Below are positions 3,628-42,157 of a stretch of 64,000 bases of DNA, piece by piece. This DNA is from a phage. The translations under genes and the position numbers were made by a program. The notes beneath the pieces were generated by a model that was not told the DNA's origin, did not search any database, and saw nothing but the letters and a program-made list of their open reading frames with translations. The stretch is taken from sequence record PX423614.1; one strand, 5' to 3'. How positions within the stretch are numbered: the first letter of the stretch is position 1; the number at the start of each line of letters is the position of its first letter.

Positions 3628-4254
3628 GTGAGCTTGTTAAGAGATTTTCAACACTATTATTGTGGAACATGGATTGCTCAGCGATCACCTGATGGTAAAA
3701 ACCTCCCTCTATATGTGCTTGATGTTCGTCAGCAAGGTAACTTTGATATCGACGACTATTCACACGACGCTGAAATGTCTTTAGTGTTTGAGGCGGAACG
3801 CTGGACTAAAAACTCTGAAGGTCAGTTTGAACGTCAGGTTGTTAGTAATATCCCAGTGTTTGATCACAGCCTCATTCTGGAGTCTCCAGATGTAGGATAC
3901 CTTCAGCATGGTAATAACATGGTGAGCTGGACCCATATCAACCCTGTTCGTCAGCGAGCTAAAGGCTTGATGGGGAATAAACTTCGTGGTGCTCCGCCTT
4001 CTCTCGGACGTTCGATTCCGGGTGATTTGGTGTACAACCTGTTTAATCCAGAGTTTGAAGGGTTGGTTACTCGTTTCATCTATATCAATCCTGTCGATGG
4101 AAAAGTTTATTACAAAGGAGCTTACGTTGGAAACGTGCTTCTTGAAGCTGGTTATGGCGACAATGGTCGTCAATCTTTAAACCTTCTGGAGAAGTTCAAG
4201 CATATTTCTTCAGACCTGTCATCATATAATGTAGAGTTGGTGGAATCATTATGA
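3628..4254 (+). CDS. hypothetical protein (208 aa, GTG start)
   Basis: ORF track; stop overlaps next start (ATGA at 4251). Confidence 0.5.
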   Translation: MSLLRDFQHYYCGTWIAQRSPDGKNLPLYVLDVRQQGNFDIDDYSHDAEMSLVFEAERWTKNSEGQFERQVVSNIPVFDHSLILESPDVGYLQHGNNMVSWTHINPVRQRAKGLMGNKLRGAPPSLGRSIPGDLVYNLFNPEFEGLVTRFIYINPVDGKVYYKGAYVGNVLLEAGYGDNGRQSLNLLEKFKHISSDLSSYNVELVESL

Positions 4255-5351
4255 CAACCGTAGCACAAGTTTTTGGATACCGTAACCCTCGCTTATCTGA
4301 ACCGCATCCAAGTATTGCTTTTCAGTGTGGTGTTGGTATTGAGTTAGAAGTCGAAGGTACAACTGACATTGACGCTGATATGTGGGTTTGTACTGAAGAT
4401 GGCTCTCTTCGTGATGGTTGTGAATTAGTATGTGCACGACCTTACAACGGTGAAGAACTACTTCGTGCTATTAACAATCTGAGTGAAGCAGTACAGGATT
4501 CCGGAGCCGAGGGAACTTGGCGCTGCTCCACTCACGTTCATATGGATATGCGTGACGCTGATAGTAATATCCTTAAGAAAGTTATTCTTGGATGGACGTT
4601 CTATGAAAAGATGATGTTCAAATGTTCTGGATACCATCGCTATCGTAGCAACTTCTGTCCAGCTTTTGCTGTCGTTCAAGCACAAGTTATGAATGCTTCG
4701 TCAGCGTTCAACCGAGACGGGGAAGCTTTCTTCCACTCTCTTGTTAATAGCTGGGATAAATATACCTCCCTTAATCTTTTGCCTCTATCTCAATTTGGTT
4801 CTGTTGAGTTCCGTATCTCAGAGCCGAAGTGGAAAAAGAGCCAACTTCTGAATCTGGTCAACCGCTTCTTGGTTCTCAAGAAACTGGCTGTTGAATATGC
4901 AGATTTAGACAATGAAGCTTATGTTGAGAAGTTGAATGAGCTGCGCTTCGCTCCTATGATTCAACATCTACCCCTAGACTATACTCCAAGAGACAGCGAT
5001 CTCACTGAAGGGTATCGTCTTGCTCGTGATATTCTCTTCTGTCGTGAGCAATCTGTAACTTTGGTTGGTCGTGTTCGTGTGCAACAGACTGGCCCTGATG
5101 GTGAAGTCCTTATCAACTTACGTGATATGAATGACTTCTATGGTTTCTTGGGATATGTGCGCGGTAATGCCAACAGTGTCTACGAAGAGATCATGACCTA
5201 CTACACCCCTCAGATTGAAAGCACTCGAATCGCAACGGTTCGTGAAATTCGTCACATATTTGCATTGATGCGTGAATCAGGTAGCAGTGATGATAACGTC
5301 ACTGGTTATATTCCAGACCATCTGGAAATGCAATTAGAACGACTGCTGTAA
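4251..5351 (+). CDS. putative amidoligase (COOH-NH2 ligase, glutamine-synthetase-like superfamily)
   Basis: N-terminal GVGIELEVEG, EDGSLRDGCELV and CSTHVHMD motifs resemble the phage/bacterial amidoligase family; assignment from memory of family signatures. Confidence 0.5.
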   Translation: MTTVAQVFGYRNPRLSEPHPSIAFQCGVGIELEVEGTTDIDADMWVCTEDGSLRDGCELVCARPYNGEELLRAINNLSEAVQDSGAEGTWRCSTHVHMDMRDADSNILKKVILGWTFYEKMMFKCSGYHRYRSNFCPAFAVVQAQVMNASSAFNRDGEAFFHSLVNSWDKYTSLNLLPLSQFGSVEFRISEPKWKKSQLLNLVNRFLVLKKLAVEYADLDNEAYVEKLNELRFAPMIQHLPLDYTPRDSDLTEGYRLARDILFCREQSVTLVGRVRVQQTGPDGEVLINLRDMNDFYGFLGYVRGNANSVYEEIMTYYTPQIESTRIATVREIRHIFALMRESGSSDDNVTGYIPDHLEMQLERLL

Positions 5352-5428
5352 CACAACGGGCGCTCTTATACAGGGCGCATTTAAAGGTTAATTAGATGAA
5401 AGGGTTTACCCTTCAGGTGGATTAGAAA

Positions 5429-7462
5429 ATTTGTGGTATCGTATTAGCTGGCGGCAACATGACCTCAGCAGATTTGGACATTTTCAACCAACTTCTGTAT
5501 GCTGGTGTTTTCCGTGGACAGCACTCAACTGGTGTGTTTGGTCAGCGTAAAGGTGAAAAGCAAGTCTTCTCTTATAAAGAAGCTCTTCCTTCTTATGCTT
5601 TTATGCTCCAGACAGAATATACAAATATTACCAAAGGGCTTACGAACTACGTAGTTCCTCCTTCGTGGATTGTTGGTCACAGCCGACATGCCACTCGTGG
5701 GGCTGTCAATGCTCGAAATGCTCACCCATTTACTCACGGGGATATTACTCTGGTTCATAATGGAACCCTGTTAGATCAAGATCTCCTTCCTGACAGTAAG
5801 CGTTTCGAAGTTGATAGTGAAAACATCTGCCACTCAATTAACACCATTGGAGCAGCAGAGACTATCCAAAAACTGGATGGTGCATTCACTTTGATTTGGC
5901 ATGATGCTAAAGACAACACGCTTCACATTATCCGTAATGATGAGCGTCCTTTCCACCTAGCCCGCTGTGGTTTGGATTGGTTTGGAGCTTCTGAAGAAGC
6001 TATGCTTATGTGGATTTTAGAGCGTTCTAAGTCCCATAAGAACCGTATCAATGACCACTTCGAATGTAAAGTGGGAACTGAGTATATCTTTGATGTGTCT
6101 AACAGTCGTATGACTCTGGTTCAAGAGGTGGAGCACACGCTTCCGGTTTTTACGGTAACGAGTCGCTGGGGCGGCTATTACTCGAACTCCTCTCTTTATC
6201 AGAACCAACAGACAAACAAATCAAGCAGCAGCACAAGCGACATTTACGGAAACAAAGACGACAAGCCCGGCGTGACAAGCGGAGACATTCGTCGTCGTAA
6301 AGCGATTGAAGACCAGAACAAACTGGCTGCCGATCGTGGTCTTCCTTATCGTCGTGATGGTCGTGTGGATATTATTCCTCATGAGTTCCATGCTTATAAC
6401 AACACAGATCGTGGTAAGATGGTTGGTTACATCTACGATGATAAAGCTCAAGAGTATGTCGAAGGGGATGTTCACAACGTAGCCAAAGATGAATATCTTA
6501 AGGCTCTTGAAAACCCAAAGGTAGTATATCGCGGGACGATTGCTTGTATCTCCGAAGTGGACAGTATGATTCGCCTCGTACTAACTTCAGGGCTGTTTGT
6601 TGATGCTACAGATAAGGAGCCTCAAAGCACTACTGCTGATTTTGATGATGATATCCCTTTTGATGCAGAGGACTCCTTCATCACTAAGAATGGTGTAGAA
6701 GTCACTCGTAAGTTCTGGGAATCTCACTCTCATGGTGACTGTGGTGGTTGTGATAAGCACATTGACTGGAAAGATGCTCGTAAGGCTGTGTTTGCTTATC
6801 AGGCATACTGGCATCCAGAATGCTTCGAAGCGTTATCTAAAACCTCTGAAGAGGAAGAAGATGTGCCTTTGGGTGTATGTGCTATCTGTGGTGAAGTCAA
6901 GACTGATTTCGAGTTTGACAACGAAATGAGTAAACTTCGTGGTGAAGACGTTTGTTATATCTGCTCCAAAGAAATCAAAGATAAAGTAAAGAATGTTACT
7001 CTATCTGAAGGTTATATTTGGACTAAAGCAGTAGACACAACCAACCCACGTCGTCCTGAAGTAGCTGTTCGTGTTGATGAACGTATGCTTAGCCGTATGA
7101 TTGTAATGGTCAGCTCAGCAAAACGTTCAGGGGATATTACACTTGCAGATGTTCCTAATTCGTATTTGGAAAAACGTGGTGGTGATACTTATGCCATCTC
7201 TGTTTATGGTCCAAAGAATTCCCCAAAGGAGGTACCCGCTGAGAAAGCGGAGACATTTCCAGAAAAGTCAACCTCTCTCCGAAAAACAGTTGTCAGTTAT
7301 GATGGACAACGAACAGCTGAGTTTACAAAAGCCCTCTGGACTTCAATTGGGTTTTGTGCAGTCTGTTATAAACAAATTCCGTGGCGTGATGCAGAAACTT
7401 GCTCACTGAACAAAGAAAACAGGGTGATCTGTAATTCAGATTACTGTAAAGGTAAACACTAA
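5429..7462 (+). CDS. class II (Ntn) glutamine amidotransferase with C-terminal multi-CxxC zinc-ribbon extension; probable ATT start
   Basis: In-frame CGIV immediately upstream of the ATG at 5459 (TAG-AAA-ATT-TGT-GGT-ATC-GTA); AGGTGG RBS 8 nt before ATT 5429; HSRHATRG...NAHPF...HNGTL motifs typical of PurF/GlmS/AsnB-type GATase; C-terminal CGGC/CAIC/CYIC/CAVC pairs. Confidence 0.7.
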   Translation: MCGIVLAGGNMTSADLDIFNQLLYAGVFRGQHSTGVFGQRKGEKQVFSYKEALPSYAFMLQTEYTNITKGLTNYVVPPSWIVGHSRHATRGAVNARNAHPFTHGDITLVHNGTLLDQDLLPDSKRFEVDSENICHSINTIGAAETIQKLDGAFTLIWHDAKDNTLHIIRNDERPFHLARCGLDWFGASEEAMLMWILERSKSHKNRINDHFECKVGTEYIFDVSNSRMTLVQEVEHTLPVFTVTSRWGGYYSNSSLYQNQQTNKSSSSTSDIYGNKDDKPGVTSGDIRRRKAIEDQNKLAADRGLPYRRDGRVDIIPHEFHAYNNTDRGKMVGYIYDDKAQEYVEGDVHNVAKDEYLKALENPKVVYRGTIACISEVDSMIRLVLTSGLFVDATDKEPQSTTADFDDDIPFDAEDSFITKNGVEVTRKFWESHSHGDCGGCDKHIDWKDARKAVFAYQAYWHPECFEALSKTSEEEEDVPLGVCAICGEVKTDFEFDNEMSKLRGEDVCYICSKEIKDKVKNVTLSEGYIWTKAVDTTNPRRPEVAVRVDERMLSRMIVMVSSAKRSGDITLADVPNSYLEKRGGDTYAISVYGPKNSPKEVPAEKAETFPEKSTSLRKTVVSYDGQRTAEFTKALWTSIGFCAVCYKQIPWRDAETCSLNKENRVICNSDYCKGKH

Positions 7463-7473
7463 GAGGTATAGTT

Positions 7474-7707
7474 ATGGAAGTTCGTAAACTGATGTTGGAT
7501 AACGTGGTAACTACCCGCCGTATTCCGATGACAAGCACAGGATGTGATAACCTCCGAGCAATTCAGAAGTGGATGCAAGAAGGTATTGGGAAGCTGGTTG
7601 ACTCTCCAGTAGAAATCCCTTTTCCAACCGTTATCAATAACGTGTTGGCTGACTATGTTAAAATGAAGGGGATTAAAGTTGAGCCTCATGTCAAGCAAGG
7701 GAGCTAA
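7474..7707 (+). CDS. hypothetical small protein (77 aa)
   Basis: ORF track; RBS-like AAGAGG upstream. Confidence 0.4.
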   Translation: MEVRKLMLDNVVTTRRIPMTSTGCDNLRAIQKWMQEGIGKLVDSPVEIPFPTVINNVLADYVKMKGIKVEPHVKQGS

Positions 7708-7909
7708 GCCTCACCTGACAATGCTGGAGTATCAACAACTCCGACTTCAACAACTGGTAACGGAGCAGCGAAAGCTGTATCCGTTTGCTTTTAACTTAAT
7801 CGACTCTCCAAGCGATGCCCAAGAAGACGAAATGTTCGCTGAGTATTGGGCAATCGAAGCTAAAATTCAATCCTGTCGTAACGAAATTCTTAAACTAAAA
7901 GGTATCTAA
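7679..7909 (+). CDS. hypothetical small protein (76 aa or shorter)
   Basis: ORF track; overlaps previous ORF, true start may be internal. Confidence 0.35.
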   Translation: MSLMSSKGAKPHLTMLEYQQLRLQQLVTEQRKLYPFAFNLIDSPSDAQEDEMFAEYWAIEAKIQSCRNEILKLKGI

Positions 7910-7911
7910 AA

Positions 7912-9147
7912 ATGACTACTCGTATCCGTGTTCTTCCGTATGGCCCGTCTGATTCTGTTAACGCTCTGGTATCTGCTATCAGTGATACTATCCGTGATGA
8001 ACGCATCAATGCTAACGTGATGGGGCTTCTTTCAGAGAATAGCCGCTGGCGTTCTCGTGAAGGTGATGTGGTTGTTAACTACGGGAACCGTCGCTATCCT
8101 GAATCATTCTTTGGTTCTGCAACCGTCCTTAACCGTACCGCAGCCTTATATATGGCAGCGAACAAACGTCGTGCTTTCAGTGTGATGGACCAAGCAGGTG
8201 TTAAAACTGTGGAATACACAGATGTTCAAGAGACTGCTCAGGAGTGGTCAAACACTGGTAATATTGTGTATGAGCGCCATGAGCTGACTGGTCACTCTGG
8301 TTCGGGCATTGTTGTTGTAGAACCGGGTGATTCAATTGGTCAAGCTGAACTGTACACCAAAGGTATTCAAGGCCCACGTCGTGAATGGCGTGTCCATGTG
8401 TTCAAAGGTGTAATCACCTATGTTCAGAAGAAGATTCGTCGCAATGGTTATCGCGAAGACCCTAACTATCGTGAAGATATTCGTAATCACCACACTGGCT
8501 GGGTTTACTCAAGCTCCTTCACAGATGCTCCGAATGACGCCTCTCTGATCAATGCAGTGAAAGCTGTTGAATCAATGGGTCTGGATTTCGGTGCAGTTGA
8601 TATTATCACCAAAGGTCAAGAAGCGTGGGTACTGGAAGTTAATACAGCACCGGGCCTGACTGGTACAACTCTGGATACTTACCGTCATAACATTCTTGAG
8701 TTTGTTAAAGCTCAAAACCCTCTCTATACTCCTCAGTATAAAGTGGTTTACCAGACTCCGATTGAAGATGGAGACGGTGAGTTGGTGGATGATATTGAAA
8801 GTGCTGATGATGAAAACTTTGCACTGGAAGGACAAGTAGCACAGCCGATTGATTCAGTTGATGTGGTTCCTGAAGAAATGCAACTGGAAGGTCAGATGAA
8901 TACTCAAACTATTCGTAATGCACCTACTGGCTACACTTTGTCTCGTGGCTACTGGATTGCAAATATCCGTCATGTCCACAACAACCTGCAACCGAATGCA
9001 ATGTCTGCCAATGTCATCCTGTTCTGTGATGGTCGTAACTTCTACCGCAGTGGTTGGAACGTTCCGGTCAATCCAGTCCAGATTCATAACCCTCGCAAGT
9101 TAGAGTCTGTCAATGTTGAAGGTAGCGAAGTAGCAGTAACTCTGTAA
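7912..9147 (+). CDS. ATP-grasp family ligase (RimK/glutathione-synthetase-like)
   Basis: C-terminal half shows GxDxxxxxG...WVLEVNTAPGL, the characteristic ATP-grasp E-V-N-x-x-PG region, plus basic-loop region RREWRVHVFKG. Confidence 0.6.
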   Translation: MTTRIRVLPYGPSDSVNALVSAISDTIRDERINANVMGLLSENSRWRSREGDVVVNYGNRRYPESFFGSATVLNRTAALYMAANKRRAFSVMDQAGVKTVEYTDVQETAQEWSNTGNIVYERHELTGHSGSGIVVVEPGDSIGQAELYTKGIQGPRREWRVHVFKGVITYVQKKIRRNGYREDPNYREDIRNHHTGWVYSSSFTDAPNDASLINAVKAVESMGLDFGAVDIITKGQEAWVLEVNTAPGLTGTTLDTYRHNILEFVKAQNPLYTPQYKVVYQTPIEDGDGELVDDIESADDENFALEGQVAQPIDSVDVVPEEMQLEGQMNTQTIRNAPTGYTLSRGYWIANIRHVHNNLQPNAMSANVILFCDGRNFYRSGWNVPVNPVQIHNPRKLESVNVEGSEVAVTL

Positions 9148-9173
9148 TTAAATTAAACAAAAAGGAATTTGTA

Positions 9174-9416
9174 ATGTTGTCTATCGAAGATTTGATCAGC
9201 CGTGGAATGACCGAAGAAAAAGAGCCTCTGATTGTAGGCTCTCGTAAAGCTATCAACCAACTCTGTGAAGAGTTCGGTATCACAAATAAGAGAATGATTG
9301 GTAATCAGTTCTCTGCAATCATCACCTTCCTCAAACGAGGTGATAAATGTTCAATGGAATGTGCTGAGCGTATCATCGCAATTGCACAAGCAGATAAGGG
9401 AGTAACAAGTCTGTGA
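9174..9416 (+). CDS. hypothetical small protein (80 aa)
   Basis: ORF track. Confidence 0.4.
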   Translation: MLSIEDLISRGMTEEKEPLIVGSRKAINQLCEEFGITNKRMIGNQFSAIITFLKRGDKCSMECAERIIAIAQADKGVTSL

Positions 9417-9598
9417 ATAAATACACAATCATGTTTCGTACAATGTCAGCAGAAGGAAATATTCAATCTCTGGACATTCAAGCAGATCGCTTTGAATCAC
9501 TTGGAACAAGTGTTAACTTCTTCCGAGGTACAGAGCTAGTGGGTACATTCCAATCTGATGTGTTGACTGGTGTGATCAAACACTTCGAAGTAGAATAA
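9413..9598 (+). CDS. hypothetical small protein (61 aa)
   Basis: ORF track; start overlaps previous stop. Confidence 0.35.
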   Translation: MNKYTIMFRTMSAEGNIQSLDIQADRFESLGTSVNFFRGTELVGTFQSDVLTGVIKHFEVE

Positions 9599-9655
9599 TT
9601 TGCTTTAGCCTCTTCGAAAGAGGAGGCTAGTTCGAATTTAACTAGAGGTTGTAAA

Positions 9656-10072
9656 ATGGTTAATAATAAACTGGATATGTTTAAAAGTCGTATCTTAGAT
9701 GTAGAGTATTCCAAAAACCTCTTTGAGAAGCACAAGAAAGAGGCAAAGGAAGAGTTAGAAAGTCTTCTGAAAGATGAAGAGATTCCTCTCTTTGATCGTT
9801 GGTGCTTGTTTCTGGAACACGGTGACTTATTTCCTGTAGCTTCAAGTGTAATTAGTAGAGCTGTTACAAGTGCAGTGGAAGGTTTTTATGACTTGGAAAG
9901 ATACCGAACTTATATCTTCTCTGATATTTTTGAAGAATACTGGTTTGGTGAAAAAGAGTCAATTTCTGATGAAACCAAGAAAGCCATTAAGGGATGTTTT
10001 GAAGAATTCCCTGAAAAGCCAATCCGATCAATCATCTTCTCTGGATATTCTGGTTTCCAACATGATTGGTAA
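9656..10072 (+). CDS. hypothetical protein (138 aa)
   Basis: ORF track; RBS-like AGAGG upstream. Confidence 0.5.
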   Translation: MVNNKLDMFKSRILDVEYSKNLFEKHKKEAKEELESLLKDEEIPLFDRWCLFLEHGDLFPVASSVISRAVTSAVEGFYDLERYRTYIFSDIFEEYWFGEKESISDETKKAIKGCFEEFPEKPIRSIIFSGYSGFQHDW

Positions 10073-10078
10073 GCAGCC

Positions 10079-10276
10079 ATGAAAAAGATTCTATTTTTCC
10101 TCTCCTTATTCAGTGTGTCAGCGATCGCCGCTGATGAATGCATCTCTAAAGATTCAGGGAGAGGTCAAATCATAACTCAATGCGGCAGCCATGTAACAGT
10201 TGTCGATTCTATAACTCAAACAGTTCTCGTGTGTAACGGGACTTCTTGTACAAAAGAAATTTTAAACAAAAGGTAA
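10079..10276 (+). CDS. small secreted cysteine-rich protein (65 aa)
   Basis: N-terminal signal-like MKKILFFLSLFSVSAIAA; six Cys in mature part. Confidence 0.45.
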   Translation: MKKILFFLSLFSVSAIAADECISKDSGRGQIITQCGSHVTVVDSITQTVLVCNGTSCTKEILNKR

Positions 10277-10280
10277 TGTA

Positions 10281-10712
10281 ATGTCTGATAAAGTATTAGT
10301 TGCAACGTATGGTTCTCTTCGTAAAGGTCAACACAACCACGCTATCAATGCTCGTGCAGGTGGTGTGTCTATTGGTGAAGGGTGGACAGTAAACAACTGT
10401 AACCTGTATCAGTATTGCACAGCATACTTCCCAAGTGTATCTTTGGAGCATGACAGCAATGGTAAGCCTGTTCGTGTAGAAGTCTTTGAAACAACCCAAG
10501 CTGGTCTGGAAGGTCCGTATGACGGTCTGGAAGGTCATCGTGGTAATGATAACCCATACACCTTTTACAAGCGTACACTGATTCCAGTATTATTGGACAG
10601 CGGTGAAACTGTGGAAGCGTGGATTTATCACATCGACGAAGAACAAGATGTTCTGGTTGAATCTGGTGACTGGACAGCATATCTGGCAGGTGAGAAGGAT
10701 GACAGTAACTGA
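10281..10712 (+). CDS. gamma-glutamyl cyclotransferase-like (AIG2/GGCT fold) protein
   Basis: N-terminal YGSLRKGQHNH matches the YGSL-x-x-G-x-x-NH signature of GGCT/AIG2-like enzymes. Confidence 0.5.
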   Translation: MSDKVLVATYGSLRKGQHNHAINARAGGVSIGEGWTVNNCNLYQYCTAYFPSVSLEHDSNGKPVRVEVFETTQAGLEGPYDGLEGHRGNDNPYTFYKRTLIPVLLDSGETVEAWIYHIDEEQDVLVESGDWTAYLAGEKDDSN

Positions 10713-10940: not shown

Positions 10941-12731
10941 ATGTCAAAGATCATTTTGGGAGACACAGGCTGTAAAGAGTGTATCTCTCATGGTCGTGAT
11001 AAGACCCGCAATCACATGATTCTCTTCCGAAATGAAGAGTCCGGTGAGGAGTGGGGTTCATGTAACAGATGTGGTGCGTATGAAATCTTCGAGAAAGGAA
11101 TGACGCCCACTCCTAATGAAAAGAAAGAGCTGTCCCCTGAAGAACTCCGAGAAGTCTTAGACGATTGCTTAGAGCTTCCTCAGGGAGAGTTGACCCGTCG
11201 CTTAATTCCTAAAGCTGTATCTGAACGCTATGGATGCCGTATTGGTTTAAGTCAAACAGACGGTCAAACTCCTGACAGCTACTTCTTCCCTCGCGAACGT
11301 GATGGGAATATTGTTGGATATGAAGTAAAACTTCTAGACAGCAAGAAATTCTATTATGTAGGTAATGTGAAAGAAGCCGACTTATTTGGTATGGCTCAAG
11401 CACAACGTGGCGATGTTTACAATAAGAAGCTCTTCATCTTTGAAGACCCACTCTCTTGTATGTCTGGATTCCACGTACTTACTGCGTTCACAAACGCAAC
11501 TAATATCAAACCTGCTTGTGTCTCTCTTCCGTTCGGTGCAGGTTCAATCTCTTCTGTGTTGTCAAGAAATCGTGATTTTATTAATGGTTTCGAGGAGATT
11601 GTACTCTGCATGGACAATGATGATGCAGGCGAGATTGCATTGACTAAAGGTCGTTCTCTGTACCCACATGTCAAGTTTGCAAGAATTCCAAAAGGTACGT
11701 TTACTTACAACGGACAGGAAAAGGAAATCAAAGATGCAAACGACATGTTACTGGCAGGGAGAGGTCAAGAGCTTTTCAATAATCTGAAGTATTCAGCTAA
11801 GCGGGAATCTCCTGCTGGAGCTGTTACAGTTTTTGATTGTCTTGAAGACGCTCTGAAGAAAGCGGAATGGGGTATCCCTTATCCGTGGAAAACTCTCAAT
11901 GACATGACCTTTGGTATTCGTTGGGGGGAGATGGTTGCAATCGGCGGTGGTGTTGGTTCAGGTAAAACCTTAATCGCACACGAACTGGTAGCATGGCTTT
12001 GCCTTGAGCATGGTTTTAATGGTGGTGGCTTCTTCTTGGAAGAGAAGGTAGGCATGTCTGTTAAGAACATTGCTGGCAAGTCTGCATCTGTTCCATTTCA
12101 CCGACCGGATGTTGAGTATGAAGAAAGTCAGCTACGAGATGAAGCACTTCGATACGCTGATAAGTTTTTCTTGTACGACAACTTTGGACAGAATGAGTGG
12201 GAAGACATTAAGCAGTGTATTCGCTTTTGGGTAGTTGAGAATCAATGTAAGTTTATCATCCTTGATAACATCACTGCATTGGTATCTCACTTAACTCCAT
12301 CCGAAGTGAATACAGAAATCAGTAAGATTGCTTCAGAGCTTGCTGGTATGTGTAAGGAATTAGACTTCACTGCTTTTGTGTTATCTCACTTGAATGCTCC
12401 GGCGGGCGGTGCCCCTCACGAAGAAGGTGGTCAGGTTAAAGAAGTACAGTTTACTGGCTCACGTTCATTAATGCGCTGGTGTCAATGTATTATCGGTTTC
12501 GAACGTAATAAACAAGCGGATGGGTTAGGTAAAAACTTGTCAATCATACGTCTGCTCAAAGAGCGTAACTATGGACAGACGGGGGTTTGCTATACCAAAT
12601 ATATTAACGAAACAGGTCGTCTTGTAGAACGAGAAGATCATGAAGTTGATGAAGATAATCCGTTTACAGTCACCAACGGAGAAGATGCAGCTTCCTTACT
12701 TTCACAAGAAGGGGAGGCACGTCCGTGGTAA
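10941..12731 (+). CDS. DNA primase/helicase (T7 gp4-like: zinc finger, TOPRIM, SF4 DnaB-like helicase)
   Basis: N-terminal CxxC...CxxC zinc finger; central TOPRIM-like acidic motifs (EDPLS, DND); Walker [10 protein letters not shown]; RBS AAGGAGG upstream. Confidence 0.85.
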
Positions 12732-13273
12732 AGAAACTGTATGCGTTTGATATTGAAGGTGATAACCTCTATGACGGTATTCAGAATGTCTGGTGTATAT
12801 GGATATTTGATGTACTGTCTGGAGAACGGTGGGGGTATCGCCCTCACCAAATTGAAGAAGCACTACACAAACTGAAAGAAGCTGATGTAGTAATAGGTCA
12901 CAATATTATTGATTTTGACCTTCCTGCTTTGTTTAAATTCTACTCTCATGTGATACCTTTTCGTTTTAATGTCTTTGATACCCTGTGCCTGAGTCGATAC
13001 CTCAAGCCTGACCGTATTGGTGACAGTCCAGAATACCCCAAAGGCGACCCTAGACATGGCCCTCGCGGTCATGGCCTCAAGCAATGGGGCGAATTTCTGG
13101 GAGAGCTGAAGGGTGATTATGGCGAACAGGAAGAAGCATGGGATGCATTCACTGAAGACATGTTCACATATTGTGAGCAAGACGTTAACTTGACAGTTAA
13201 GGTTTACATGTGTCTTTGCCAAATGGCAGGATTTGATTATAGAAATCCCCCATCTCTCAACTGGAAAATGTAG
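12725..13273 (+). CDS. family A DNA polymerase 3'-5' exonuclease domain, encoded as a separate gene
   Basis: Exo I FDIEGDNL, Exo [13 protein letters not shown], Exo III YCEQD motifs; 182 aa with its own stop. Confidence 0.7.
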
Positions 13274-13275
13274 AA

Positions 13276-14748
13276 ATGATTAAGATTCCATTGTCTGAAT
13301 TGAACCTTCAAGAAGGAGAAGCCCTCAGTGTAGGGCTTGACCTGATTCGTAATTTGATCAGAGATAACGTAGTCCCTGATGGCATCTATCCTGTTATTGC
13401 AGGTGGTGCTATCCGTGATACGTTCTTCCAAAATAGAACTCCGAATGATGTTGATATCTTCCTAGTTCAAGGAGGGTTTCGTTGGAACACTCGTCAGGAA
13501 AACAGCCCTGCTAACGTAGGTAATGCTGCACTTTTCCTTGACAACTTCTTATCTTGGACAGAAAGTAAGGGGCTTCAGGTTACATCTCGACTAATTCAGC
13601 CTGTTAACGGGACAACCTATGCTGAAGCGCTTTTCACTTTCCAAGAGATTCTGGAAATTGAGATTGATCAAGTTAAAATCCAGATGATGATTAATCTACC
13701 TTTGGATATGGATACTTTAAGCCGTCGCTTCCCTATGATCTGTCAAGGGTTTATGACTCTTGGTAATCTGTATGTGTCAAACGAAGGTTTGTTTGCAATG
13801 TCATACACTCGTGACATTCCTGTGGTATCTAGTCGTGAAATGAAGTACGTTCACAAGAAGTGGCCTGAAGCAACTGTTGCAGTTTATAGCAGTTCTACCG
13901 AATATATGCACCTTGCAATGGGAGCTTTCGGTGAGCCAGAAGTTCACCTGATTAGTGATTTAGTTGGACCTATGGCTGGTGTAAATTTATATCAGAATCA
14001 GCGTCGTCATTATACCCTGAAGATGATGGAAACTATATTAAACATTCCTCAGGAAAGGGGTCGTAGTTATCTGGACGAGGAAGTTAACCTACAGACAGAA
14101 TGGTCTAGTGGATTAACCACTATAGGTGCTGAAGCAATCACGCAGCCTTGGACTCCGGGAACTAACAGACGAGATCTTCAAGCTTTTAATGAAGAAACTT
14201 CTCGAACAGTTCGAGGAGGTGTTGTAGGGTATAACGTACAACCTCATGAAAGACCTCGTGACACTTTCACTGGCAGTTTTGGTAGTGCACGCTCTTCTGG
14301 AGTGGATACTCGTACATGGCATGTCCAAGGAGGAACTGCTCGTCCTATTCCCTCTCCGTCAATGGATGATTTGCAGCGTTCTCGTCGTTCATGGGAAACA
14401 GTAAGCTCTGTTGTTCAGGGTCTACGTGCTAGAGATATTGAACGTGTAGAAGTTGGTGATTTGCCAACCCCTACAGAAGATCGAGTATCAGCTATAGCGG
14501 CTCGTGAAGCTGCTCATATTGGTTTTGCATCATTAACTAATGACGCTAACGAAGCTCCTCGACCTGTTGGTCGTCGTAATGGTCTAGCTCACTCTGACAC
14601 TGCACTTGGTGCAGAACTACGAGCAGCAGCTCGTGAGCTATCTGGTGAGCTTCACAACAACCTAGCAGGTGTTACACTATCTCGTGAAACAGCTCGTAAT
14701 ATGATTAATAATTTGGCATCATCTGTACAAGGAAACAGAAACTCATGA
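13276..14748 (+). CDS. Pol-beta-superfamily nucleotidyltransferase (CCA-adding/poly(A)-polymerase-like head) with disordered R/S/G-rich C-terminus
   Basis: AGGAIRD-x13-DVDIF fits the G[GS]-x9-13-DxD nucleotidyltransferase motif; C-terminal ~200 aa low complexity. Confidence 0.5.
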   Translation: MIKIPLSELNLQEGEALSVGLDLIRNLIRDNVVPDGIYPVIAGGAIRDTFFQNRTPNDVDIFLVQGGFRWNTRQENSPANVGNAALFLDNFLSWTESKGLQVTSRLIQPVNGTTYAEALFTFQEILEIEIDQVKIQMMINLPLDMDTLSRRFPMICQGFMTLGNLYVSNEGLFAMSYTRDIPVVSSREMKYVHKKWPEATVAVYSSSTEYMHLAMGAFGEPEVHLISDLVGPMAGVNLYQNQRRHYTLKMMETILNIPQERGRSYLDEEVNLQTEWSSGLTTIGAEAITQPWTPGTNRRDLQAFNEETSRTVRGGVVGYNVQPHERPRDTFTGSFGSARSSGVDTRTWHVQGGTARPIPSPSMDDLQRSRRSWETVSSVVQGLRARDIERVEVGDLPTPTEDRVSAIAAREAAHIGFASLTNDANEAPRPVGRRNGLAHSDTALGAELRAAARELSGELHNNLAGVTLSRETARNMINNLASSVQGNRNS

Positions 14749-15278
14749 GTCTTTTAGGTTCTCAAGAATTACACAGCGTTATCGATAATGGCTTTTTAGA
14801 TGCGGAGCATAAATATGTTAACGCTGCTAGCGTGGATATCCGTATTGGTGATACTATCCTTGTTGAAGAACAGGCTGATGGTATTGTTGACATTGATGCT
14901 AAAGAAAACCTCAAGTGGAAAGAAGTGAAAATCCCTGAAGATGGCATTGTCATTACTCCGGGACAGTTCTTCTTAGCTCACTCTATGGAAGAATTTAACC
15001 TTCCAGACAATATTTCAAGTCTGTTTGTACTCCGCTCCTCAATGGCTCGTTGTGGTTTAAACCACTTACATGCTGGGTGGGCTGATGCAGGGTTTAACAG
15101 CAGTAAGCTAACCTTTGAGTTCCATAACGTTACCCACAATCACAGCTTACGAGTTCGTGCTGGGATGCGTGTTGGTCAAATGGTTATGTTTGAACACTCT
15201 CACGCTGGTGATGATTCCTATGCAGTGAAGGGTCGTTATAATAACTCTGATGGGGTTGTTGCTTCTAAAGGCGTATAA
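14745..15278 (+). CDS. dcd: dCTP deaminase / dUTPase-family protein
   Basis: SVDIRIGD, LRSSMARCGL, GWADAGFN and GMRVGQMV resemble Dcd motifs (VDVRLG, GRSSLARLGL). Confidence 0.7.
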   Translation: MSLLGSQELHSVIDNGFLDAEHKYVNAASVDIRIGDTILVEEQADGIVDIDAKENLKWKEVKIPEDGIVITPGQFFLAHSMEEFNLPDNISSLFVLRSSMARCGLNHLHAGWADAGFNSSKLTFEFHNVTHNHSLRVRAGMRVGQMVMFEHSHAGDDSYAVKGRYNNSDGVVASKGV

Positions 15279-15281
15279 TTG

Positions 15282-15494
15282 ATGGAGTTTGGAACAATGA
15301 AAAGACGTTGGGTAGTCCGCGTTCACTGGAGCAGTGGTACAGAATCAATGGGTATCAGAAACACTCGTCAAGAAGCTCGCGCTCATAAGAAGTTCTTATT
15401 AAGCTGCGAAAGTACTATTGACAAGATCACTATCCACAAAGCTCAGGACTTTAAATCAGGTCGTTTCTATATCAGCGGAAAGGTACATTACTAA
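15282..15494 (+). CDS. small basic protein, paralogue family A member 1
   Basis: W-x-V-x-V-x-W...TRQEAR...KITIHK...KVHY shared with three other ORFs. Confidence 0.5.
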   Translation: MEFGTMKRRWVVRVHWSSGTESMGIRNTRQEARAHKKFLLSCESTIDKITIHKAQDFKSGRFYISGKVHY

Positions 15495-15700
15495 TGGCTA
15501 AATTATGGGCAGTTCGTGTTAAATGGGCTAACAAAGATCTTGGTGGTGATTGTCTTAAACTGTTTGACACACGACAAGAAGCTCGTCTTGCTAAGAAAGC
15601 TACAAAAGCTTTAGGTCTCGCTGAAAAAGTAGAGATTCATCGTTGGTTTCAAAATGATAATAACAGTGCAGGATCCTTGACTAGCAAGGTTCATTACTAG
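15494..15700 (+). CDS. small basic protein, paralogue family A member 2
   Basis: Same pattern (WAVRVKW...TRQEAR...KVEIHR...KVHY); start overlaps upstream stop (TAATG). Confidence 0.5.
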   Translation: MAKLWAVRVKWANKDLGGDCLKLFDTRQEARLAKKATKALGLAEKVEIHRWFQNDNNSAGSLTSKVHY

Positions 15701-21494: not shown

Positions 21495-21848
21495 ATGCCA
21501 GTACCTCAACGCCTAGAACGTCACTGCGTTCTCAAATGGGATAATATTCATGATAACCTCTCTATTCAAGAGTTTCGTCAGTTTATCGAATTGACAGCGA
21601 AGATTAACCGAAACCAACCAGCTCGAAACTTTGTGGTGGTTAGCGATAAGTATCCAGAGCTGTATGAGCAGGTGTGGGGGATGAAACTAGCACAGGTTCA
21701 GAGGAATAGTAATGAACGGAGAGAAGCTCGTAGACAGCGAGCAGAAGATGTTCCAGCAGTCTTTTATGTGGATGAATTGGCTGATTCATATGAAGCTTTA
21801 GATATTGTTGAAGACAACCAAGCATTCACAGATTTAATATACCAATAA
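21495..21848 (+). CDS. hypothetical protein (117 aa)
   Basis: ORF track. Confidence 0.5.
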   Translation: MPVPQRLERHCVLKWDNIHDNLSIQEFRQFIELTAKINRNQPARNFVVVSDKYPELYEQVWGMKLAQVQRNSNERREARRQRAEDVPAVFYVDELADSYEALDIVEDNQAFTDLIYQ

Positions 21849-21861
21849 CTATAAGGAGTGG

Positions 21862-23556
21862 GTGATGGATAACCCTGATAAGTTACCTTTCATAACGGAG
21901 ATGACAGTCGCTGATATAATCTCAAAACAGGCGAAGCATGGAGTCAACTTCAACAGAAGAAACGCTCGGTGGTTTGTTCACCTTCTCAAAGAGATTATTG
22001 TCAATATTGATAAAGAACTGATTCCTCTCCTCCCCAAAATGCGGGTGGATGGTTCAACTTATTCCAAACCTTTTAAGAAGTCCGGTGCTTTACAGAAGTG
22101 GCCTCAACTCTATTGTGATAGGGTTGGTCTTAAAAGAGAAGATATCGGTGGGGCGTTTACTTGCGTTGAGTATGTAGACTTTGACCCATCAAAAGATGCA
22201 CGTATCAAAGAAGCCTTGATGGATGAAGGTTTTATACCTCCAGAGTGGAATTATTCTAAGAAACCTTGGAATACTTTTGAAATTCGTAAAGCTATGAAGA
22301 AGTATGGTACATACTCTGCATGGTATTCTGCTTGGATTCGAGGTAACGCTAAAGAGAAACAGACAGCAGAGATGATAGATGCTGATATCCGAAGGTTTTT
22401 GGATAAACACTTCCGTTATCATACTGTCAATTATATGAAAGCCTATGTCAGCGGTTTAGGTCTTAACCCTAACAGGAAGAAGCCTGTAACCTTTGATGAA
22501 ATCAAAAAAGTTTTGGCTACATCAAACAAGTGGCCTACAGCCCCTACAAACCTTGAGGAGACTCTTGAAGAGGGGCTTGGGGGTGAGCTAGGGGGTGTAG
22601 GAAGTTTGCTTAAGAGACGCGTTGTAGCGGCTCACAGGCTAGGTTTGATTAGCGGGCTTATCGACAAGGAACGTAAAGATGGTAAGTTGTCCGCCGAAGC
22701 TAATAGCTGCGCTACTCCGACATTTCGTTTTAAACATCGCATTGTTGTTAATATTCCTTCTCGCGGTTTGTTTGGTCACGAGTGCCGCAGTCTTTTTCAA
22801 TCTGACTATTCCTCAGACGATAGTCATAACCATCCTTTCATCATTACCAACCATATCCCTGATGGGTGTTACGTACGAAAGGGTACTAACATTATCTATG
22901 AAATGGGAAAACCGGGCAAGAAAGACAAACCAATAGGTGCTTATAAATTTTATGTACCTGCTGGTCGTGAAGTCTTCTTAGGTTATGATGGCTCTGGTCT
23001 TGAGCTGAGGATGCTCGCTCACTACCTTATCAAAGAGTGTCGTGAGATGCTCGCTGAAGCAGAGCGGGAAAACAACCCAGCTAAGAAACGGGAAGCTGAA
23101 CGCGGTCTAGCTTCTGCTGTTATGTACAGAGATATTCTTTTAGAAGGAGATATTCACTCACATAACCAAAAACTTGCTGGCCTTCCTACTCGTGATAATG
23201 CTAAAACATTTATCTACGCATTCAACTACGGAGCTGGTGACGCTAAGTTAGGAAGCATCGTAGGTGGTGGCTCTGACGAAGGGGCTATCATGAGAGCAAG
23301 ATTCTTAGCAGAGAATCCTTGTATTGCAATCCTTATTGAACGTATGACAGAGAAAGCACAAAGTGGATATATCTACGGTGTGGATGGACGTCGTATTACA
23401 ATGAGAAGAGATGCAACTGGAAAGGTTATGGTCCATAAAGCCTTAAATACGCTCCTACAGAGCGCTGGGGCGATTGTTATGAAGTATGCAATGCTATTCC
23501 TCAATAAATGGATTGAGCGTGATGGTGTTCGTTGTGCGAAGGTTATCGACATGCAT
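21862..23556 (+). CDS. family A DNA polymerase, polymerase domain, exon 1 (ends within motif C)
   Basis: Motif A YDGSGLELR, motif B RDNAKTFIYAFNYGAG; track ORF continues to a stop at 23577, but reading stops being polymerase-like after ...AKVIDMH. Confidence 0.65.
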
Positions 23557-24164
23557 AAACTTTCATTGTGCATGTAAAAGTTGGTGAACTCGGTGAAACC
23601 CTACCATTAAGTTGGGGGCAATACCGAGCTAAGCTATTAGGAGATGATATGGCTAAGAAAACTCTTGTTTTGGAAACAACCGAAACAGGGTGTATCATCC
23701 CTATCTCACACAAACTTAACAAAGATGGTTATTTCAGAAAAGTAATAGATGGCAAATGGGTCATGTATCATAGATATGTTTGGGAAGAATCTTTTGGTTC
23801 TATTCCTGATGGTTATGAAATAAATCACAAATGCAAGAATAGGGCTTGTTCCAATCTTGAGCACTTAGAAATGATTGAAGGTTCAGAACATGCAATAGAA
23901 TCAAACACTGGAAGAAATGGAGATAGACAAGAAGCTGCAAGGCTTTATTGGCTAGAAACAGAATGCTCTGGTGTACATCTTGCAGAGAAGTTTGGTGTGA
24001 GCTTCGGAATCGGTTGTAGATGGATTCGGAAGTGGAAAGTGTAGAGACTATCCTAAGGGAGTAGGGGGTTAACAGGGAAACCCTCGAAGCGCCAACAACA
24101 GCAAATTAGCTATGCTGTTATGATATAGTCCGATACCCGAAGTAATTTGGGAATAACATAAATG
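23557..24164 (+). mobile_element. putative group I intron carrying an HNH homing endonuclease ORF, inserted at polymerase motif C
   Basis: Upstream exon ends with T (cat), insert ends with G, downstream codons GAT GAA restore ...VIDMH|DEGQF (HDE motif C); an HNH ORF lies inside. Confidence 0.5.
23649..24044 (+). CDS. HNH homing endonuclease
   Basis: RBS AGGAG before ATG 23649; YEINHKCKNRACSNLEHLE HNH motif. Confidence 0.65.
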   Translation: MAKKTLVLETTETGCIIPISHKLNKDGYFRKVIDGKWVMYHRYVWEESFGSIPDGYEINHKCKNRACSNLEHLEMIEGSEHAIESNTGRNGDRQEAARLYWLETECSGVHLAEKFGVSFGIGCRWIRKWKV

Positions 24165-38275: not shown

Positions 38276-39244
38276 TTAAGAGCTAGCTAAGCCACCGATA
38301 ACACCGCCAGCTAAAGCACCCCAAGGGCCAAAAGCTGAACCAGCAGCAGCACCACTAGCAGCACCACCTAGGAAGCCTCCGCTACCACCAGATGTTTTAG
38401 TAGTTGTGGTTGTCCCTAAAGCTCCATTAAGAACCCCGGCAGCACCTAGTTGATTGTTAATATCCTGCCAACCCCAATTAGCAGCATTCTGAGCATTCTC
38501 ATAAGCATTGTTCAAATCAGACTGCTGTTGTTGCTGCTGTTGCAGTCCTGCATTCCACTGATTCATCATTTGCTGTTGTGATAACTGACCAGCTTGGTTT
38601 CCTAGATTAGCAAGATTGGAGCCAATGTTAGATAAACCACCCAAAGCAGATGCTTGTGTTTGTCTATTACCAGAAAGAATGTTCTGTGCTTGAGTTAGAG
38701 CGGAGTCATAAGCACTATTAGTAATATTGGTTGCTGTGTTCTGCATCTGGTTCAGAGCATCACCTTGAGCAAAAGATTTAGCCATACGTGCACCAGAACC
38801 TTGCTGACCAGCAAACTGCTGAGAAATTTGAGGAAGTGCATTCCTAGCCAAACTCTGTTGGGTTTGTTCATTATTCGCTGCAATAGCTGCTTGCACAGCC
38901 TCATCGTCATAGAGCTGGCCTGCAAGAGCACCAATCTGTTCTCCAGTGATTTGACCAGAGTTTGCAAGGTTGTTGTATCCAGAGTATGCGTTATCTAGAT
39001 ACCCTAAACCAGATTGGGCAGCATCCATGTATTGAGAAGAAAGTGCACCTAATGCACCAGATTGTGATAGATTGTTCAGAGCCTCTTGCTGGTTTTGATT
39101 AAGTCCAACATTTTCTCGATACACATAATCGCCTGAACTAGTGTTATTAACCTGATTGACCAACTGATCAATATAGGATTGAATGTAGTCAGGTCTTGTC
39201 ATTTTAGAAGTAGTCTTGCTACTCCCACCACCAAATAAAGCCAT
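38276..39244 (-). CDS. N/Q/G-rich virion protein, paralogue of 39254..40306
   Basis: Shared N-terminus M(A/S)LFG..., Asn/Gln/Gly-rich, poly-Q run, Gly/Ala-rich C-terminus. Confidence 0.6.
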   Translation of the reverse strand: MALFGGGSSKTTSKMTRPDYIQSYIDQLVNQVNNTSSGDYVYRENVGLNQNQQEALNNLSQSGALGALSSQYMDAAQSGLGYLDNAYSGYNNLANSGQITGEQIGALAGQLYDDEAVQAAIAANNEQTQQSLARNALPQISQQFAGQQGSGARMAKSFAQGDALNQMQNTATNITNSAYDSALTQAQNILSGNRQTQASALGGLSNIGSNLANLGNQAGQLSQQQMMNQWNAGLQQQQQQQSDLNNAYENAQNAANWGWQDINNQLGAAGVLNGALGTTTTTKTSGGSGGFLGGAASGAAAGSAFGPWGALAGGVIGGLASS

Positions 39245-39253
39245 AGCTCCTCC

Positions 39254-40306
39254 TTAATTTGCTCCAAAGGCTCCTAGAACACCACCTAAGATATTACTCC
39301 CTGCGGTAGATAACCAGTTGCTCTGACCGTTCTGTTGAGACAGGTTTGAGCCACCAATCATAGGACCAGCCATCCCAGCTTGACCTCCAGAAGCATTGTA
39401 CGAATTCCAAGCATTAGTAGTTTGCTGGTTAGGGGTAAAAGCACCTAGACGACCAGCAATACCAAGACCAGTAACCCCAGCACCAAGGATTTGTTGTGAA
39501 GCATTAGGGGCAGCACCTCTATTAGTAATAGTGTACCCAGCCATTGGACTTACTGAGTTTAATACATTAAGCTGATTGTTAAGCTGATTCCAACCATACT
39601 GCTGACTGCCAATATCATTCTCCCAATTGTTGTTAGCTTGGAGTTGATCTTGCTGCTGTTGAAGGTTTCCAGCAGTGAGCTGATTCTGTATTGCCTGTTG
39701 ACCAGCTTGCACCCCAGCAGCTCCTAGGTTCAGATTCTGATTTGCTAAACCAGACTGAGCATTGAGCAAACCTTGCTGATAAGAGTTGTTATTCAGAAGA
39801 TTACTAACACCCATATTTTTACCCTGAATAGAGCGAGAGAGGTTAGTATTCGCTGAAGAAAGAGCAGCACCTTGAGCAGCAGCGCGTCTCAGAGAGCCTG
39901 AGTCAGAGCCATTGCCAAGAGATACATTAGCAGCAGCTTTGCCTGTAGACTTAGCTAGTGCAGAGTTATTTAATCCAGAACTAAAGTTATTAACATCTTG
40001 AGCAGAGATACCACCTTTATTGACTAGGTTTTGGTATTTCTGAGCCAACTCATTCATCTGGTCTAGCCCTTGTTGAGTCCGAGGGGTATACATCTGACTG
40101 AGTTGGTTAAGTGTGTTAGAGTTTGCTAAATTAGAAAGAGCTGCCGTTTGGCCTTCATTGAAGCCCGCTATATTGCGACTGATGAACCCTTGGTCATTTT
40201 GATTCATAGCTTGGGCATTGGCTACAATCTGTTTCAGAAGAGCATCAACCTGAGAAGACGGAGCTACCGTAGTCTTAGATTTAGGAGCAGAACCGAAAAG
40301 AGACAT
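39254..40306 (-). CDS. N/Q/G-rich virion protein, paralogue of 38276..39244
   Basis: MSLFGSAPKSKTT... similar composition and N-terminus. Confidence 0.6.
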   Translation of the reverse strand: MSLFGSAPKSKTTVAPSSQVDALLKQIVANAQAMNQNDQGFISRNIAGFNEGQTAALSNLANSNTLNQLSQMYTPRTQQGLDQMNELAQKYQNLVNKGGISAQDVNNFSSGLNNSALAKSTGKAAANVSLGNGSDSGSLRRAAAQGAALSSANTNLSRSIQGKNMGVSNLLNNNSYQQGLLNAQSGLANQNLNLGAAGVQAGQQAIQNQLTAGNLQQQQDQLQANNNWENDIGSQQYGWNQLNNQLNVLNSVSPMAGYTITNRGAAPNASQQILGAGVTGLGIAGRLGAFTPNQQTTNAWNSYNASGGQAGMAGPMIGGSNLSQQNGQSNWLSTAGSNILGGVLGAFGAN

Positions 40307-41125: not shown

Positions 41126-42157
41126 TCATAAACCTGCAAAAATCTTAGCAGCGTTGATTACAGGGATGGAGATATTAACAGCAGCATTAGAACCTAAGTC
41201 ATAGCTGTTAGACCATTGGAACATATATCTACCATATCCAGTTCCTATTGAAGATCCTGACATGGTATGAGAACGCATTTGTTGATAATACCAACCACCC
41301 CCACTTCCTCTAATAGCTCCAACTCCAGAAGACAGAGGAATCATAGGATAAGCTAAGCCAGTATCTCCACCTGCTGAGCCTACGAAAGTGTCTACTGTAA
41401 AAGGAGACCTATAAGTAGAGAATACGCACTGAGTAGTTCCGGGAGAGTATATATTTAAACCGCCGTTGTGTTCAGGAACCCCAGCACCATTACAAAATAC
41501 AGCAACCCTAGCAAACACAGAACCACCTTCATTAGTGTTGCCGTTGTTATAAGACCTGTTTTGATAAACTCGAATCACCCTATCTCCTGATGTATAAGAT
41601 AAACCAACACCACCATCAGACCAGTTAGCAAAAACTACAGCATTAGGCATATAGAAACCACCAATATCAGGTATCTGTAGAGCGTTGTTTATAGTTCCTT
41701 GCCAAGCCCAGATACATTGACCCACAACCCCAGCATCTGAGATAGAGAAGTAGTCAGCTGTATTAGAGAAGGTTATTCCATAGTTCCTATCAGCTCTTGG
41801 GTAGATTTGATATATATTGAAACCACAGTCAAACAAGGGGTTGCTTCCCGGATTTTGATTTAATGTAACCCTGAACGATGTGTTATTCTCTACATAAATA
41901 TTGTTGACACAATATACATCAGGAATTAAGTTAGGAGGAACCTCCCATTGCCAACAAAGAGATCCTGTTGGTACAATCACTATCTGACCACTCCCATCCC
42001 ACCCGCTAATAGGAAAAGACCTTCCAGCCCCATTAAAGTTAAAACTCCCACTTATTGAATTTTTTATTTGAGGAAAAGTACTTCCGCTATCAATAAAGAG
42101 AGGAGCCGGGGAAGCTGGTCCCGGTCCTACAGGTTGACACCATATTCCATAAGCCAT
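41126..42157 (-). CDS. tail-associated structural protein (343 aa)
   Basis: ORF track; Gly/Ser/Asn-rich beta-type composition. Confidence 0.55.
   Translation of the reverse strand: MAYGIWCQPVGPGPASPAPLFIDSGSTFPQIKNSISGSFNFNGAGRSFPISGWDGSGQIVIVPTGSLCWQWEVPPNLIPDVYCVNNIYVENNTSFRVTLNQNPGSNPLFDCGFNIYQIYPRADRNYGITFSNTADYFSISDAGVVGQCIWAWQGTINNALQIPDIGGFYMPNAVVFANWSDGGVGLSYTSGDRVIRVYQNRSYNNGNTNEGGSVFARVAVFCNGAGVPEHNGGLNIYSPGTTQCVFSTYRSPFTVDTFVGSAGGDTGLAYPMIPLSSGVGAIRGSGGGWYYQQMRSHTMSGSSIGTGYGRYMFQWSNSYDLGSNAAVNISIPVINAAKIFAGL

Follow-up and report, generated by a model that had tools for sequence, protein, structure and literature searches.

Among the closest described relatives of the protein considered here are the class II tRNA nucleotidyltransferases and poly(A) polymerase I (PF01743; e.g. 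PDB entries 3aql, 1miv, 4wby, 3h37, 1ou5 and 6ibp), which have the nearest head and share motif A with it. The class II enzymes also have motif B (RRD-F/L-T-x-N-A), involved in ribose recognition, motif D (E-D-x-x-R), involved in base templating, motifs C and E, and α-helical body and tail domains that bind tRNA or RNA. Small head-only 'PolyA_pol head' proteins of 170–220 residues are, as judged by a Foldseek search of predicted viral structures (BFVD), frequent in the Autographiviridae and in other podophages, e.g. LKD16, LIMEzero, PP2, phiAS7, Cd1 and Vibrio phage VEN. Head-only proteins are annotated as tRNA nucleotidyltransferases in Pectobacterium phages, their role being not known (PMC7693777).

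The gene studied here lies in the window, i.e. the entire 64,000-nucleotide stretch of phage DNA that was analysed (PX423614.1), which is from a Gordonclarkvirinae coliphage of the Suseptimavirus type and is 98% identical to vB_EcoP_PAS59. The gene itself has 98.3% DNA identity to that of Escherichia phage vB_EcoP_PAS59 and 88–95% identity to 19 further records among the matches listed, including EK010, SU7 and ECBP2. The open reading frame picked out by the first-pass annotation is real (Table 1), its product giving a full-length match to the PHROG 12715 'nucleotidyltransferase' profile (E 1.8e-165; residues 1–483 on profile positions 1–456 of 457). GenBank entries name the product 'hypothetical protein', while RefSeq and BASEL records name it 'nucleotidyltransferase'. 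The annotation is therefore already public, and candidacy for DNA modification has already been raised in one paper; two papers mention the protein without functional data, and no functional study of the PHROG 12715 nucleotidyltransferase was found in the literature. The protein has been seen by mass spectrometry in a preparation made without CsCl purification (PMC4281155).

The nucleotidyltransferase ATG lies 2 nt past the stop codon of the DNA polymerase A exonuclease-subunit gene, and its TGA shares bases with the start codon of the dCTP deaminase gene (ATGA); no excess of promoter- or terminator-like sites was found around it. It is an internal gene of a replication and nucleotide-metabolism operon. 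An overlapping gene in the tail region was considered and rejected, the other frames holding only 52- and 71-residue ORFs. No Rfam families were found at 9–20 kb in the window.

Table 1. Positions in the window of the nucleotidyltransferase gene, the parts of its product and the other genes discussed
Feature	Residues	Position	Strand	Remarks
Nucleotidyltransferase CDS	1-490	13276..14748	+	ATG-to-stop ORF, 490 aa + stop; PHROG 12715 match
Conserved catalytic head	1-215	13276..13920	+	sole part alignable family-wide
Motif A (AGGAIRDTFFQNRTPNDVDIF)	42-62	13399..13461	+	GG-x-x-RD helix and DxD metal-binding strand
Family-specific conserved helix (SREMKYVHKKWP)	186-197	13831..13866	+	consensus R-[DE]-x-x-Y-x-x-K-K-[WY]-P, aa 187-197; Y191 and K195 invariant
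Helical subdomain	216-283	13921..14124	+	pLDDT 71-91; in all members, sequence poorly conserved
Disordered tail (predicted)	284-490	14125..14745	+	Arg-rich, Lys-free, net neutral
Hypervariable indel segment	301-330	14176..14265	+	identity 0.08-0.46, gaps up to 75%
C-terminal 30 residues	461-490	14656..14745	+	last 20 invariant in 23 genus-level clusters; aa 461-470 95% identical
T7 gp4-like primase-helicase		10941..12731	+	first gene of block primase-helicase / exonuclease subunit / nucleotidyltransferase / dCTP deaminase
DNA polymerase A 3'-5' exonuclease subunit		12725..13273	+	upstream operon neighbour; 182 aa
dCTP deaminase		14745..15278	+	downstream operon neighbour
Tandem paralogous ORFs		15279-15494, 15494-15700	+	71 and 68 aa; phrog_4939
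117-aa ORF		21495-21848	+	just upstream of polymerase subunit
DNA polymerase A polymerase subunit		21865-23577	+	570 aa
Amidoligase (PF12224)		4251-5351	+	upstream cluster, 4251-10712
Class II glutamine amidotransferase		5459-7462	+	same cluster
RimK-like ATP-grasp protein		7912-9147	+	same cluster
Gamma-glutamyl(amine) cyclotransferase		10281-10712	+	same cluster
phrog_4287 'DNA ejection proteins' (paralogous pair) and phrog_1265 'membrane protein'		38276-39244, 39254-40306, 41126-42157	-	Lys-poor: 1.2%, 2.3%, 0.6%

The conservation of the catalytic centre is striking. The motif A residues G43, G44, R47, D48, D58, D60 and F62 are invariant in an alignment of 26 family members, as are Y115, I125, Q136, P153, Y191 and K195; the members are 21–29% identical to the window protein, with one close relative at 89%. 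The hallmark of the Pol-beta superfamily, i.e. an hG[GS] helix-turn followed by a Dh[DE]h strand on an α-β-α-β-α-β core, is present, and so is the class II form of motif A (GGxVRD...DxD), at which the family profile was aligned with E. coli Cca and with class II CCA-adding enzymes of the PDB (best 6ibp, E 0.002; also 4x4w, 8cbm and 1ou5), the family consensus 'IaGGaVRD...phDiDI' lying on 'IVGGAVRD...PHDVDV'. At first pass AGGAIRD (residues 42–48) and DVDIF (residues 58–62) had been read as the catalytic signature of this superfamily, with a formal alignment of the Asp residues proposed as the check; the reading holds, because the family consensus lies on the class II GG..RD...DxD of 6ibp and the other enzymes.

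Searches with the window protein gave no match in Pfam even at E ≤1, PF01743 included, nor in NCBIfam or PADLOC, and phmmer with the single sequence against the PDB returned noise only. Weak matches to PF01743 (the PolyA_pol head) were obtained for 17 of the 26 members, all of them below the 23-bit gathering score (the best relative reaching 21.8 bits), and most spanned only profile positions 3–24 or 3–35 of 126, i.e. motif A.

An AlphaFold2 prediction of the full-length protein with the family alignment is confident for the globular part and of low confidence for the tail; for residues 1–283 the model has a pLDDT of 85 and a pTM of 0.85. The predicted order of elements (strand, GG helix, DxD strand, helix, long hairpin, helix, two short strands, helix, strand, helix) fits a class II head plus neck, and the helical subdomain that follows has a short C-terminal motif, [WY]-[ST]-x-G-[LR] (TEWSSGL, residues 274–280). 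In a Foldseek search of the PDB the top 11 matches were all class II CCA-adding or A-adding enzymes. Since at most 166 of the 283 residues are aligned, with targets of 340–520 residues, the likeness is that of a class II-like head, perhaps with the start of the neck, lacking body and tail domains; indeed, the α-helical body and tail domains with which class II enzymes bind tRNA or RNA are absent from the predicted structure. The structural part of the first-pass annotation, a nucleotidyltransferase with a CCA-adding/poly(A)-polymerase-like head, is thus upheld by both the motif A profile match and the Foldseek result, and to judge from the conserved residues and the model the protein is very probably an active Pol-beta-type nucleotidyltransferase of class II ancestry.

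The first-pass annotation had also called for class II enzymes to be separated from the cGAS/DncV-like (CD-NTase) and MNT classes. Class II is clearly the better match in structure and in sequence; neither a fold or profile match to CD-NTases nor a CBASS-type context was found, there is no Pfam or PADLOC match to CD-NTases or to MNT (HEPN-MNT)/NTP_transf_2 families, and the neighbouring genes encode the PolA exonuclease subunit and dCTP deaminase, not HEPN proteins. These observations bear on the proposal that the protein is a counter-defence or host-takeover enzyme, which nucleotidylates (e.g. AMPylates) a host or defence protein, or makes or mimics a signalling nucleotide, rather than extending a nucleic acid. 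Together with the location of the gene in a replication operon, and not among the early host-takeover genes, they make such a role decidedly unlikely.

The features that confer specificity on class II enzymes are far less evident than motif A. Motifs B and D are absent from the invariant and near-invariant columns of the family alignment, and no conserved counterpart of motifs C and E is recognisable in that alignment or in hhalign comparisons. When the protein is compared by eye with E. coli Cca, [FM]-P-x-x-[CSA] seems to occupy the place of motif B (RRD-L-T-I-N). The same comparison, with the order of secondary-structure elements, indicates that the conserved helix at residues 186–197 may be the positional counterpart of motif D (EDxxR), with Y191 replacing the base-templating Arg; this correspondence was not confirmed by hhalign, which in greedy mode placed the sequences in another register, itself unreliable. 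When E. coli Cca and PcnB were compared with the family by hhalign, motif A alone was reliably aligned (the Cca match covering 23 columns), the greedy and global modes giving unreliable or contradictory alignments. Nor was a conserved third carboxylate found in the family alignment, where the E127 column contains E, D, Q, N or S and Q136, on the paired strand, is invariant.

With motifs B and D not recognisable, the Pfam score below threshold and the tRNA-binding domains absent, the protein is unlikely to be a canonical CCA-adding or repair enzyme. The first-pass annotation had listed tRNA 3'-end repair among candidate roles, and a genuine enzyme of CCA repair or A addition, acting on tRNAs that tRNA-targeting host toxins or defences have damaged, would be in keeping with the nearest solved structures, which are CCA- and A-adding enzymes, with the class II type of motif A and with the rapid divergence of the gene, which fits a counter-defence role; related small phage nucleotidyltransferases, moreover, routinely receive this annotation and show enrichment among phages that infect certain hosts (PMC7693777). 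Besides the failures listed above, it is opposed by the lack of a tRNA gene in the window, by the host already having Cca, and by the only tRNA of the 98%-identical PAS59 having a gene-encoded 3' CCA, and this role is considered quite improbable. That tRNA, a tRNA-Arg(UCU), lies among the early genes of PAS59 (10110–10185, outside the window). A rationale based on tRNA maturation was accordingly rejected as a strong argument, the window having no tRNA and the PAS59 tRNA-Arg an encoded CCA.

The family is small. An exhaustive phmmer search with residues 1–275 against 1.84 billion cluster representatives gave 29 proteins (clusters), and word-indexed homologue searches returned the same 22 close relatives whether a single sequence or an alignment was used; one hit of the exhaustive search, a 3044-residue protein (P0044) matched over 15 short stretches, was taken as a repeat artefact. 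Wherever context could be seen, the nucleotidyltransferase gene lies between those for the PolA exonuclease subunit and dCTP deaminase, the complete block starting with the primase-helicase being kept in EK010, phiEco32 (Kuravirus) and EP335 (Nieuwekanaalvirus), in two metagenomic viral contigs of 82–88 kb and in a contig whose nucleotidyltransferase is only 23% identical.

Within this fixed setting the divergence of the gene is extreme. In comparison with phiEco32, the primase-helicase and dCTP deaminase are both 93% identical and the PolA exonuclease subunit 80%, whereas the nucleotidyltransferase head is 36% identical and its mid region and tail give no significant match. No other ORF of at least 90 residues common to the two phages has diverged as far as the nucleotidyltransferase (33% identity over 60% of its length, most others being 65–95% identical). 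Likewise, phiEco32 gp73, SU10 CDS74 and EP335 gp070 (PHROG 12715) belong to the same family, with the same position, invariant residues and Lys-free tails, yet their heads are only 33–42% identical to that of the window protein, and their mid regions and tails lack similarity to it, while the flanking genes are 80–93% identical. For the primase-helicase, 96 phage records show at least 90% identity; the nucleotidyltransferase records, by contrast, split into 23 at ≥80% and 75 at <60% identity, the gene being kept in 98 of 98 matching phage records. This split implies purifying selection within a type and very deep divergence between types, a pattern that suits a gene in conflict with a variable host factor better than it suits a core replication enzyme.

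It might be argued that such fast divergence relative to the neighbouring genes, together with the failure to find a conserved third carboxylate, reflects either decay of the gene or a product that is catalytically dead and has a structural, accessory role in the replisome. The invariance of the motif A residues in 26 of 26 members, the strong purifying selection within the genus and the retention of the gene in all 98 records make this extremely improbable.

Other features of the surrounding region may be noted. The family A DNA polymerase is split, the genes for its two subunits lying 8.6 kb apart, with HNH endonuclease genes between them in relatives. The 117-residue ORF immediately upstream of the polymerase subunit gene is the second most diverged relative to phiEco32 (36%), so that the two most diverged genes shared with that phage each adjoin a polymerase subunit gene. 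The two small tandem ORFs downstream of the dCTP deaminase gene are 33% identical to one another and both end KVHY; a KBNP1711-type relative has three copies of this type of ORF. The sign of the GC skew changes at ~32000, where the rightward early/middle genes meet the leftward late (structural) genes.

The tail of the protein is unusual in composition. It had been described at first pass as long, disordered and basic; disorder is supported, in that pLDDT values are mostly below 50, with weak predicted helices at residues 363–385, 401–414, 443–463 and 470–486, but 'basic' is wrong, since in residues 271–490 the 25 Arg are equalled by 10 Asp and 15 Glu, giving a net charge of 0 and a pI of 7.2. 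This region is rich in Arg (11.4%), Ala (10.5%), Ser (9.5%), Thr (9.1%) and Gly (9.1%), and contains no Lys. Lys makes up 5.7% of the predicted proteome of the window, and is wholly absent from the tails of 19 of 19 tailed family members (~1600 residues with ~170 Arg). Trp-centred short motifs occur in the window tail (TEWSS, QPWTP, RTWHV and RSWET), with similar ones in phiEco32 and EP335, and short family members end in aromatic sequences (..GGWTF, ..IRWQW, ..TTWDW and ..SEYDF). Tails of different genera are not alignable with one another, and tail length varies across the family from 0 to ~220 residues.

As judged by substitution and conservation patterns, the tail is nonetheless under purifying selection and is not junk: among six phages dN/dS is 0.17–0.47 (about 0.3) for the tail versus 0.02–0.16 for the head, and outside the indel hot spot at residues 301–330 the tail is 85–100% conserved among 23 genus-level clusters. 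The strongly conserved C-terminal 30 residues are a candidate partner-binding module. There is no clear support for a foreign origin of the tail, its GC content being 0.47 versus 0.42, but its GC3 0.19. Elsewhere in the window, the two paralogous ejection proteins and the phrog_1265 protein, the last with a Lys-free run of 305 residues, are also poor in Lys; unlike the Arg-rich nucleotidyltransferase tail, they are poor in Arg as well.

The Gordonclarkvirinae are strongly resistant to restriction–modification systems without a known mechanism, and in the BASEL paper reporting this, Humolli et al. (2025; PMC11990801) name the nucleotidyltransferase and dCTP deaminase as candidate DNA-modification genes, a proposal that is explicitly speculative. 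Such a DNA- or dNTP-directed enzyme could act in an unrecognised pathway of genome modification or protection and so explain the resistance, e.g. by nucleotidylating a base or a DNA end, or by joining with the dCTP deaminase encoded next to it in the synthesis of a non-canonical precursor. The translational coupling of the gene to those for the PolA exonuclease subunit and dCTP deaminase, its strictly conserved position and the failure to find a conserved counterpart of motif B with its ribose-recognising RRD are in line with this possibility. So are the numbers of EcoRI (GAATTC, 14) and EcoRV (GATATC, 20) sites, which in the whole window are near expectation, so that avoidance of sites is not enough to account for resistance to EcoRI and EcoRV and was rejected as its cause. 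Other sites of the window show a different pattern: ten GC-rich 6-mer palindromes (e.g. CTGCAG, GTCGAC, GAGCTC and CCATGG) are absent, 6–11 copies of each being expected, and CCWGG (4 occurrences) and GATC (118 versus ~240–280 expected) are both strongly avoided.

Against a DNA-directed role, we know of no DNA modification pathway that uses a class II-like Pol-beta nucleotidyltransferase; dCTP deaminase and an ordinary ThyX (PF02511, E 1.4e-42) constitute a standard route of dTTP supply; and no modification has been reported for the frequently sequenced phages of this group. Deep divergence beside replication proteins that are 93% identical would also be odd for an enzyme with an invariant substrate such as DNA, and overall we regard this role as unlikely. 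Hypermodification of thymidine via 5-hmdU is not supported, the thymidylate synthase being an ordinary ThyX.

Upstream of the primase-helicase gene lies a cluster (4251–10712) encoding amide-bond-forming and amide-bond-cleaving enzymes, in which Arg is favoured over Lys and there are Lys-free runs of 118–139 residues. A more far-reaching proposal would make the nucleotidyltransferase the missing determinant of broad restriction resistance, acting on DNA or dNTPs in the replication complex to install or prime an undescribed modification chemistry, with the tail adapted, by being free of lysine, to a lysine-directed chemistry of the phage amidoligase/ATP-grasp/γ-glutamyl-cyclotransferase cluster or of a host defence; this combination is highly doubtful.

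The explanation that we tentatively prefer, as possible rather than probable, is that the protein is a non-canonical, template-independent nucleotidyltransferase that acts on a nucleic-acid 3' end, more likely of RNA, with its tail serving as a tether. It builds on the fold, the invariant GG..RD...DxD centre, the disordered yet selected tail and the fixed place in the operon, which are established here. A class II (CCA-adding/poly(A) polymerase) head would have lost its tRNA- and CCA-specific features, or altered them past recognition. D58 and D60 would hold two Mg2+ ions and an NMP or dNMP would be moved from a nucleoside triphosphate to the 3'-OH of the nucleic-acid end, RNA being the more likely acceptor because of the nearest relatives. 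In place of motifs B and D of the class II enzymes, the family-specific residues Y115, Q136, Y191 and K195 may confer specificity. The tail, rich in Arg, free of Lys and carrying the Trp motifs and an invariant C terminus, would be a flexible tether to a substrate or partner protein, and may replace the missing body and tail domains in a manner analogous to the C terminus of E. coli poly(A) polymerase I, which is disordered and is thought to aid RNA binding. The protein differs so strongly from one phage genus to the next that a rapidly changing host or defence component is suggested as its target or partner.

Several observations count against this explanation, i.e. the third carboxylate not found conserved, the genomic neighbours, which serve DNA and dNTPs and not RNA, and the net neutrality of the tail, which is unlike a simple nucleic-acid-binding tail. 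Since tail-less members exist, the tail must be dispensable for the core function.

What is new here, relative to the public annotation, is that all class II criteria beyond motif A fail, that the family is very small and lineage-restricted, that its gene is the most diverged of those common with phiEco32 while lying inside a 93%-conserved block, and that its tail is strictly lysine-free and selected. The protein appears as a stripped-down class II-like enzyme, in which the catalytic centre is kept and the specificity motifs are not recognisable. Its gene has a fixed place in the replication operon of restriction-resistant phages, and is the fastest-diverging shared gene of these genomes, a property which usually marks a gene in conflict with the host. 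A lysine-free disordered tail in every lineage represents a strong compositional constraint.

In comparison with the class II enzymes, the phage protein retains motif A, but falls below the Pfam threshold, has no recognisable motif B (RRD..T.N), C, D or E, carries an inserted helix of ~20 residues plus loops after the DxD strand, lacks the helical body and tail domains, has a Lys-free, net-neutral tail instead and is encoded in a phage replication operon. The head-only phage nucleotidyltransferases (LKD16 ORF16, Pectobacterium phage PP47 gp28, LIMEzero and phiAS7) are similar to it in structure (BFVD E 6e-9 to 1e-3; TM 0.5–0.6, target-normalised) and likewise have a class II-type motif A and a place in a T7-type replication module beside a helicase or primase-helicase gene (PMC7693777); they are, however, shorter, at 170–220 residues, without the mid subdomain and tail. 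The head-only ORF of Pseudomonas phage LKD16 (1704–2303, 199 residues) overlaps the end of the helicase gene, has no match in Pfam or NCBIfam and returned two proteins in a homologue search. By hhalign it is aligned with the present family over ~41 columns around motif A only (E 4e-4, probability 35%), and it keeps a motif-B-like D-Y-T-L-N, whereas the Gordonclarkvirinae family is without such a motif. Head-only enzymes are widespread in T7-like phages and equally uncharacterised, and a biochemical answer for the enzyme described here might extend to them.
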